Position numbers and translations under genes: made by a program. From assembly GCF_003334385.1 (NCBI RefSeq), contig NZ_QOWN01000134.1: a DNA stretch of 1,027 bases, one strand, 5' to 3'. The stretch's first letter is position 1, and each line of letters starts with the position of its first letter. This DNA comes from Escherichia coli (lineage in GTDB: Bacteria > Pseudomonadota > Gammaproteobacteria > Enterobacterales > Enterobacteriaceae). Below, in pieces: positions 2 through 1,027 of this stretch. The notes beneath the pieces are model-generated. The model made no database searches. It was not told the origin of the DNA and saw only the letters and a program-made list of their open reading frames with translations.

Positions 2-1027
2 TACATTCACCAGTCCCTGACGCTGCTGAAGCAGTTCATTCCCCAGCCCCAGCAGACGGTTGAATTCCGTATGCTGACCGTTCATAACCAGCATGGACTG
101 GTACACCTTATTCTGCTCTGCCGCCTGCTGACGAATTAACGCCACACGACGGTCTTCCAGCCCGGCAAGCACATCCTGAATGGACTGCGCTTTTTCCTGC
201 ATCTGTGCCAGACGGGACTGCTCAACGGCAAGCTGCTCTGTTGCCTGAGAAAGCCCTTCCGTTACGGTCTTCACCGATGTCAGATGGTTTATCATGAATC
301 CGTCACCGGTTGTCCAGCCAGGGTTAGCCAGAACATACTGATATCCAGCGATTTTTTCCTGCGGGGATTTCACCCGGCTGGCCTGTTCATCAATCAGCCG
401 GTTCTGCTCTGCCAGCGCCGCCCGTGTTCGTCCTTCATTATCTGAGGCTTCAGGCAAAGACATTGACGGCGTTTTATGCGCGATTTCATCTATCGTCAGT
501 GCATACTGGCGCGCTGACTCCCTGGCCTGCTCCTGATTCTGGTACAGCGTATACCATGCTGCTGCCCCCAGCATCACCAGTCCGGGTACGCCACCAACCA
601 GTCCCAACGCACCAGTCATCAGACGTGAGCCCACCGCCGTTGTACTGTTCAGCGCATTCTGGGCTGCGGTTCTGGCAGCAATATTTCTGTTCAGGCGTTC
701 CTGTGTGGCCGCCAGACGGGCTTCTGCAGCAATCTGCATCTCCGTCCCGCGGGCTGCCGCCACAGCCTGCTGTGCACGGTACACGGCTGCCCTTGCCCGC
801 GCCGTGGCAATCTGCGTCCCCCTGAGCTGTGCTTCCGCCAGTGCCACTTCATTACGTGCTGCCGTCACAAGTCCTGCCGTGGCAGACACCGCTCCGGAGG
901 CCATATTGCCAAAGTACCGGGCAACCCCGACGGCAACCAGCGCCCCCGCTGCTGTTGCCACATTATCAATATTACCGGCAACACCGTTCAGCACGCCGGA
1001 GAGCGTTTTCGTCGCTCCGCTGGCTTC
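2..1027 (-). CDS. Putative phage tail tape measure protein (tail length determinant), internal fragment; CDS continues beyond both window edges (N-terminal side past 1027, C-terminal side past 1)
   Basis: Seen in sequence: hand translation of the reverse complement from 1027 gives 342 sense codons with no stop, so the frame is open end to end. Composition is strongly non-random: Gly/Ala/Val-rich hydrophobic segments at residues ~9-57 (LSGVLNGVAGNIDNVATAAGALVAVGVARYFGNMASGAVSATAGLVTAA) and ~136-162 (LMTGALGLVGGVPGLVMLGAAAWYTLY), with Ala/Arg/Gln/Glu-rich helical stretches between and after them. Codon choice is consistently enterobacterial-like in this frame. Established knowledge: tape measure proteins are long, mostly alpha-helical, low-complexity proteins with Gly-rich hydrophobic segments. 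Inference: the family assignment rests on architecture only, not on a database hit; exact boundaries are unknown. Confidence 0.62.

Follow-up and report, generated by a model that had tools for sequence, protein, structure and literature searches.

Does a glycine-, alanine- and valine-rich stretch of a phage tail gene in Escherichia coli encode membrane-spanning helices and, if it does, how many? The stretch lies in a 1,027-nucleotide (nt) piece of contig NZ_QOWN01000134.1 (RefSeq assembly GCF_003334385.1), called the window below, whose minus strand encodes part of an HK97-type tail tape measure protein (TMP). A first-pass annotation, made from the letters of the window, had proposed that the 49 residues encoded at positions 857..1003 give room for two membrane-spanning or membrane-inserting helices. 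We find that the stretch is a real, conserved Ala/Gly/Val-rich patch whose hydrophobicity is conserved only over some 18 residues at its centre, and that a second segment of the same protein, TMP 408-433 (nt 545-622), is a much better transmembrane (TM) candidate.

The features at issue, numbered along the full-length protein (window residue 1 is TMP residue 273), are as follows.

857..1003, minus strand, TMP 281-329: the flagged segment, rich in Gly, Ala and Val, in the gap that separates the Pfam matches to TMP_3 and Phage_HK97_TLTM
962..1015, minus strand, TMP 277-294 (ATKTLSGVLNGVAGNIDN): a conserved amphipathic helix, from the alignment and AlphaFold2, of which the flagged segment covers 281-294
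908..961, minus strand, TMP 295-312 (VATAAGALVAVGVA then RYFG): a conserved hydrophobic core
857..907, minus strand, TMP 313-329 (NMASGAVSATAGLVTAA): the allele-specific second half of the segment and start of predicted hairpin arm A, just past a mosaic junction with phage HK97
596..901, minus strand: a predicted long helix-turn-helix, rich in Ala, Arg and Gln, with arm A at TMP 315-363, a turn at 364-366 (ARG) and arm B at 367-416
545..622, minus strand, TMP 408-433 (LMTGALGLVGGVPGLVMLGAAAWYTL): a second, stronger hydrophobic segment, kinked at a near-invariant GG-x-x-G (here GGVPG, nt 581-595)

Composition and conservation of the segment

Nucleotides 1003..857 encode exactly LSGVLNGVAGNIDNVATAAGALVAVGVARYFGNMASGAVSATAGLVTAA, the peptide quoted in the first-pass annotation, and its description of the make-up as small and hydrophobic holds: G, A, V, L, I, M or F fill 36 of the 49 positions (73%), G, A or S fill 24 (49%), and two residues, a D and an R, are charged, with uncharged runs of 15 residues (294-308) and 20 residues (310-329). 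The combined Gly, Ala and Val fraction of 0.59 is the maximum among the 49-residue windows of the 1080-residue protein (0.30 overall) and was reached in only four of 2000 shuffles of that protein. The glycines, which had been described as regularly spaced, stand at irregular intervals of 4, 3, 10, 6, 6, 5 and 7, and small-xxx-small motifs in the segment show no excess over its composition (shuffle p = 0.72); on the spacing and the shuffle test we rejected both GxxxG enrichment and regular glycine spacing. Two labels also needed adjustment. The peptide had been numbered as residues 9-57, which identifies the same residues in the numbering of a partial open reading frame (ORF), their true position being TMP 281-329; and it is the first hydrophobic segment inside the window only, TMP 66-88 (GSAVGMAGAFAGAFATGHLISLA) coming earlier in the protein and outside the window.

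When all of 1.84 billion cluster representatives were scanned, 18,388 relatives came up at E <= 0.001. Column statistics were taken from 70 sequences, all spanning both hydrophobic stretches: the query and 69 homologues (68 cluster representatives and HK97 gp16). The hydrophobic character of the segment is kept across this set, down to about 30% identity, and residues 281-329 are near gap-free in the alignment.

Within the 49 residues the alignment distinguishes three parts. The first belongs to an amphipathic helix with the family motif L-x3-L-x2-(L/V)-A-(D/E/K)-N-(I/M/F)-(D/E), in which the hydrophobic columns are 281, 285, 288, 292 and 295, Ala289 occurs in 55/70 sequences and Asn291 in 64/70, and the polar positions are mostly charged (71% in column 290, 69% in column 293); AlphaFold2 predicts a helix at 277-290 with a predicted local distance difference test score (pLDDT) of about 56-66. 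The second part is the core, whose columns 295-308 are charged in 0-4% of sequences, column 297 excepted (20%), and which is followed by R309 (59% charged), Tyr310, Phe311 and G312 (51/70). The third part, 313-329, is moderately hydrophobic, several columns within 320-329 being charged in 10-34% of sequences.

Phage HK97 makes the division between the second and third parts visible. Its TMP, gp16 (NP_037710), has the same domain order (TMP_3, Phage_HK97_TLTM, Tape_meas_lam_C), a similar length (1089 residues against 1080) and 52% identity overall. Residues 281-312 are nearly identical (LVAVLNTVSDNIDTVATAAGALAAIGGARYLGG), and HK97 also keeps the second hydrophobic segment with its GG-x-P-G motif. 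In 30-residue windows the identity runs at 67-93% to residue 300, falls to 43%, 33% and 20% over 301-390, and returns to 57-77% over 391-450; the break comes right after ARY(F/L)G, at TMP ~312/313 (window ~905-910, minus strand), so that the mosaic junction lies within the flagged segment. In HK97 the residues matching 313-329 read MFGDLGNQTAQLIDARK, a polar and charged sequence; since phages of both types function, the family cannot require a membrane span there. The hairpin allele of HK97 is also longer, with arms of 59/60 residues against 52/50 here, and in this sequence comparison the hairpin region has the look of a cassette that can be exchanged.

Hydropathy and predicted structure

We judged hydropathy on four scales, Kyte-Doolittle (KD, with KD19 the 19-residue value), Hessa, Wimley-White (WW) octanol and Goldman-Engelman-Steitz (GES) trapezoid, in scale-based tests with internal controls. 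The Hessa, WW and GES values follow the published scales, and the Hessa score is a simple 19-residue sum. The classical KD cut-off for transmembrane segments is 1.6.

Segment 281-329: KD19 maximum 1.24; Hessa +6.1 to +8.6 kcal/mol; WW octanol +2.9; GES 0.62-1.23
Core 295-312 within it: KD19 1.24; GES trapezoid 0.78
Second segment 408-433: KD19 maximum 1.73; Hessa +3.4; WW octanol -3.4; GES 1.89
Lambda gpH 116-140: KD19 maximum 1.59; Hessa +3.7; WW octanol -2.2; GES 1.78
HK97 gp15, an inner-membrane protein: KD19 maximum 2.43; Hessa -1.5; WW octanol -15.1; GES 2.15

The flagged segment scores below 408-433, below the borderline lambda gpH 116-140 and far below HK97 gp15. Its only score to pass a cut-off is the GES value of 1.23 for residues 310-330, above a TopPred-like threshold of 1.0, on a scale that is generous to Ala, Gly, Ser and Thr. 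By these scales nt 857-1003 do not contain two stretches of at least ~19 residues with TM-grade hydrophobicity, nor do homologues conserve the hydrophobicity of both putative spans, only 295-308 being uncharged family-wide. Across the 70 sequences the first segment reaches a KD19 of at least 1.6 in 25 (family median 1.51) and the second in 61 (median 1.73). By these statistics one hydrophobic helix, not two, is kept at 281-329 across the family, and the present allele stands at the weak end. The length of the segment would allow two membrane-spanning or membrane-inserting helices; its hydropathy (KD19 <=1.24) and its homologues go against them, and AlphaFold2 models no confident hairpin there. 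As a description, then, the first-pass annotation keeps its coordinates, its composition and the hydrophobic character, and gives up the glycine regularity, the numbering, the word "first" and the two-span hydropathy.

The earlier stretch at TMP 66-88 (Lys8385Vzw 5380-5448) is rich in Ala, Gly and Phe and uncharged, scores 1.39 by KD19 and 1.69 by GES, and is kept in HK97. AlphaFold2 confidence is low there too.

AlphaFold2 was run on TMP 33-470 with a 66-sequence alignment and returned a model of mean pLDDT 79. Around the segment it places helices at 277-290, 292-302 and 307-310, followed by a long helix at 315-363, the turn 364-366, a second long helix at 367-416, a break at Gly417-Gly418 and helix 419-460; the two long helices have pLDDT 82-95 over most of their length. 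Inside the segment itself a helical hairpin, for which the first-pass annotation had suggested a structure prediction, does not appear with confidence, the model falling below pLDDT 50 for 291-319. A Foldseek search of the model against the PDB gave no match at E <= 0.001, returning generic long-helix proteins only.

The model is confident over the TMP_3 region (pLDDT 84-98). That region (82-272; Lys8385Vzw 5429-6000) is predicted, at pLDDT above 90, as a helical domain of many short helices; if compact, the modelled fold would fit poorly with a fully extended helix in the tail tube and may represent a pre-assembly or post-ejection state.

Two features of the alignment bear on the predicted hairpin that begins inside the segment. 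G366, at the turn, is present in 43/70 sequences, and the arms come in heptad-step length classes, arm A with 52 or 59 residues and arm B with 46, 50, 53, 57 or 60, which co-vary (r = 0.70). This co-variation lends some independent support to arm pairing, and we infer that the two long helices of the modelled hairpin pack antiparallel. If the hairpin is real, core 295-312 and segment 408-433 would lie side by side at its open end. In the second segment, columns 412-433 are ~0% charged, G417 and G418 are each present in 67/70 sequences, G421 in 69/70 and Trp430 in 38/70, and an aromatic W/Y cap is followed by QNQEQ.

The gene, its neighbours and its relatives

The minus-strand frame read from nt 1027 is open through all 342 codons of the window, the other two minus-strand frames have many stops, and those ORFs that are listed for the plus strand are either short or by-products of antisense reading. 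The matches that identify the protein are listed below.

2..1027, minus strand: the ORF spanning the window without a stop, residues 273-614 of the 1080-residue HK97-type TMP, placed by megablast, PHROG 339 and a computed offset
5..661, minus strand, window residues 123-341: Pfam PF06120 Phage_HK97_TLTM, E = 4.8e-71
TMP 395-686: Pfam Phage_HK97_TLTM in the full-length protein, E = 1.2e-89
TMP 83-272: Pfam TMP_3, E = 7e-58
TMP 862-933: Pfam Tape_meas_lam_C, E = 5.5e-18
TMP 157-231: NCBIfam tape_meas_nterm, E = 1.5e-22
TMP 725-1043: NCBIfam tape_meas_lam_C (TIGR01541), 237.5 bits against a cut-off of 104.75

By megablast the window is 99.3-99.6% identical to phages of E. coli, both Shiga toxin (Stx)-converting and other lambdoid ones, and up to 99.8% identical to E. 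coli chromosomes, with matches in 1959/5426 complete genomes. The matching records comprise hundreds of phage and E. coli entries, and where they are annotated the usual gene name is tail tape measure protein. In phage Lys8385Vzw the homologue is a 1080-residue coding sequence (CDS) in the lambda-like order major tail, chaperone G, T, TMP, M, L, K, I, J; the order in a PGAP-annotated E. coli prophage is identical, the gene lying, as in its family, between the G/G-T chaperones and the distal tail genes. The PHROG 339 profile (tail length tape measure) matches the window at E = 2.6e-115. An NCBIfam scan of the window alone gave no match, the full-length protein matching N- and C-terminal domain models only, and an Rfam scan of both strands of the window gave none either. 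The protein is long (1080 residues) and mostly alpha-helical (AlphaFold2 models residues 33-470 as almost all helix), with the lambda-type C-terminal domain. Its identification as a TMP in the first-pass annotation is therefore borne out by PHROG 339, PF06120, the annotations and the lambda-like gene order: this is an ordinary, routinely annotated TMP of E. coli lambdoid and Stx prophages.

Several smaller observations concern the window and the genes next to it. A plus-strand ORF of 133 residues (window 424-825), Pro- and Ser-rich, runs antisense to the TMP gene and most likely owes its existence to the GC-rich coding strand across from it. Window nt 362-364 (window residue 222, TMP 494) specify a Pro in place of the Leu of Lys8385Vzw (VKSPQEK against VKSLQEK), at a site where a helix is expected, and two Ala/Val differences between the same sequences fall at window residues 5 and 280 (TMP 277 and 552). 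The Lys8385Vzw CDS 4928-5137, annotated as "putative minor tail protein", encodes the T portion of the frameshift chaperone G-T: the T frame is open from 4808 (to 5137), overlapping the end of G beside an A AAA AAG slippery run, and the T part is 56% identical to that of HK97 gp14. The idea that this 69-residue ORF, which precedes the TMP gene, might be an exclusion moron like gp15 was rejected: it is the T part of G-T, it has no similarity to gp15 and it is not hydrophobic.

The genes flanking the HK97 TMP are alike, with G/G-T upstream and M, L and K downstream; HK97 carries the gp15 moron between G-T and the TMP gene, whereas this prophage type has none there. Injection by HK97 depends on its TMP, PtsG and FkpA (cited in PMC5099701 and 10.1101/2025.12.01.691526), and earlier studies, including a 2015 paper on HK97, suggested two transmembrane regions in trimeric TMPs (cited in PMC13033339). 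HK022 was uninformative as a fine-mapping control for the gp15/PtsG determinant, its TMP sharing the C-terminal ~390 residues only and lacking the whole module.

Gp46 of Pseudomonas phage JBD30 (8RK3) is homologous over TMP 33-465, a span that takes in the two hydrophobic stretches as well as the Arg-Tyr boundary (FGVAAVAGLTRYVAS), in a phage with another host and a pilus receptor; the 33 C-terminal residues of gp46 are all that is resolved, and its authors proposed that the TMP is expelled and then refolds as a membrane channel (PMC11445458).

Other tape measure proteins are alike by description, and discussion of their hydrophobic segments as membrane-insertion or chaperone elements, to which the first-pass annotation had appealed, is indeed found in the literature (PMC5099701, PMC10038345, PMC12617516, PMC13033339). 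In T5 pb2 a 46-residue hydrophobic stretch was proposed to be two TM helices that insert into the outer membrane after ejection (PMC10038345). It is similar in length and also belongs to a siphophage TMP, but it sits near the C-terminus, before the cleavage site R1127, rather than in the N-terminal third; we liken the two by description and claim no sequence homology. In lambda, gpH 116-140 is called transmembrane by "some, but not all" programs, and gpH* forms a trans-envelope channel (PMC12617516); gpH was proximity-labelled from the inner-membrane protein ManZ during injection (PMC13190303). That lambda segment is likewise hydrophobic and in the N-terminal third of a lambdoid TMP, with hydropathy like that of 408-433 and clearly above that of the flagged segment, whereas gpH has only its C-terminal region in common with this TMP. 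A homology of 408-433 to gpH 116-140, seen by eye (AAAWYTLYQNQ against AYAWYQGN), was dropped when BLASTP of gpH 1-252 against TMP 396-487 gave no alignment. In TP901-1, hydrophobic regions I390-Y460 and F591-V679 of the TMP were tested by deletion, the first proving essential, and chaperone binding was proposed (PMC5099701); that phage has a Gram-positive host and three TMHMM-predicted spans per region, and is likened here without established homology.

Readings of the segment

The first-pass interpretation stands insofar as this is a hydrophobic segment of a TMP, and falls where it called for two membrane-spanning or membrane-inserting helices. In the reading we prefer, to which we give about an even chance, the core and the second segment pair to give the hairpin a hydrophobic foot, which would be covered by G/G-T during assembly and would contact a membrane or an inner-membrane protein after ejection. 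On this reading the segment is a conserved, moderately hydrophobic linker, composed of the amphipathic helix that ends the TMP_3 module, the short Ala/Gly/Val core and the first turns of a ~100-residue hairpin. In the virion the stretch would belong, inside the lumen of the tail tube, to the bundle of extended TMP helices, where its small side chains would permit tight helix packing and, at 1.5 Å per residue, its 49 residues would lengthen the tail by ~7 nm. During tail assembly the G/G-T chaperones, whose genes lie just upstream, would probably cover its hydrophobic face. After ejection, core 295-312 would come to rest beside the aromatic-capped, more hydrophobic 408-433 at the open end of the hairpin, and as a hydrophobic foot of two helices they would engage either the cell membrane or a host protein of the inner membrane. 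The Ala/Gly-rich first helix would be the weaker partner, probably facing protein or a pore, and would be one helix, not two.

Several observations weigh against this reading. The hydropathy of the segment is weak in this allele (KD19 1.24, under 1.6; Hessa +6.1 to +8.6; WW +2.9), and the uncharged core spans only 14-15 residues. The segment is the lowest-confidence stretch of the AlphaFold2 model (pLDDT <50 for 291-319), and the structures of relatives (JBD30 8RK3, Sf11 9OCC, lambda 8IYK) model the C-terminal ~30 residues only and none covers it, residues 749-780 being the only ones modelled in Sf11 gp18 (PMC12724387). The arm-length correlation is drawn from related homologues, whose events are not independent. 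The authors of the TP901-1 work, finally, considered membrane insertion "less likely" than chaperone recruitment (PMC5099701).

That last judgement is the natural starting point for the main rival, which we regard as possible though somewhat unlikely: the patch would be an assembly element only, binding the G/G-T chaperones and packing in the tail-tube lumen, and would make no membrane contact during infection. Besides the preference of the TP901-1 mutagenesis authors, the sub-threshold hydropathy and the location of the G and T chaperone genes immediately upstream of the TMP gene favour it, and small residues would presumably suit tight helix packing. It accounts less well for an uncharged core kept at 30% identity in phages with diverse chaperones, and for the pairing of that core with a clearly TM-like second segment on either side of the predicted hairpin; the TMPs of lambda and T5, moreover, do reach membranes (PMC12617516, PMC10038345, PMC13190303), and chaperone binding in HK97-type TMPs would itself be carried over by analogy.

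We consider it improbable that two membrane-spanning or membrane-inserting helices form a hairpin within the 49 residues, as the first-pass annotation had it. A length of 49 residues with two charges would allow this, the GES-trapezoid value of 1.23 for 310-330 exceeds the TopPred-style threshold, the T5 pb2 stretch has been described likewise (PMC10038345), and two TM regions have been suggested for trimeric TMPs (cited in PMC13033339); but the last of these fits the core and the second segment better. KD19 values of at most 1.24, Hessa sums of at least +6.1 and a WW octanol value of +2.9 all speak against two spans. Residues 281-294 are amphipathic, with polar positions mostly charged in homologues, HK97 gp16 has a polar and charged sequence at 313-329, where several columns of the alignment are 10-34% charged, and AlphaFold2 places 315-329 in a continuous 49-residue helix with no confident hairpin inside the segment.

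It is a little more improbable that the stretch is a low-complexity spacer or recombination-tolerant joint that only adds length and links exchangeable N-terminal and hairpin modules. The mosaic junction with HK97 gp16 at ~312/313, the minimum of AlphaFold2 confidence and the absence of Pfam coverage would all suit such a spacer, but a spacer would not explain why N291 (64/70), the uncharged 295-308, R309, Y310 and G312 (51/70) are kept in distant homologues, or why the length of 281-329 is fixed and almost gap-free. The case that the first-pass annotation had named as one that would overturn its proposal, a buried hydrophobic core inside a globular enzyme domain, is effectively refuted: AlphaFold2 does show a confident, compact helical domain just upstream (TMP_3, 82-272), but the segment lies outside it and outside any Pfam or NCBIfam enzyme family, in the gap between TMP_3 (83-272) and Phage_HK97_TLTM (395-686), where the model is of low confidence and Foldseek against the PDB finds nothing at E <= 0.001.

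A further idea, which we think has a small chance of being correct, gives the mosaic junction a more specific role. The conserved core VATAAGALVAVGVARYFG may serve as a fixed joint at which the N-terminal TMP_3 module recombines with a variable hairpin cassette, of which at least two allele classes exist (52/50 and 59/60, whole heptads apart), and the hairpin allele, which the two hydrophobic segments would hold at the membrane, may decide which inner-membrane host protein is needed for DNA entry (for example PtsG for HK97) and which superinfection-exclusion or defence proteins block it. If so, the flagged segment would mark the boundary of an entry-specificity cassette.

Hydrophobic TMP stretches and their proposed roles are an established topic, this is a feature of a known kind, and in practice it matters little. 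What is gained is a correction of scale: the segment holds a single short, conserved hydrophobic helix, the following segment (408-433) is the stronger membrane candidate, and the two flank a predicted heptad-stepped hairpin. In the HK97 family, where the dependence of injection on PtsG, FkpA and gp15 is still without a structural explanation, this module would, if it does form the membrane foot of the ejected TMP, offer a concrete target for mutagenesis.

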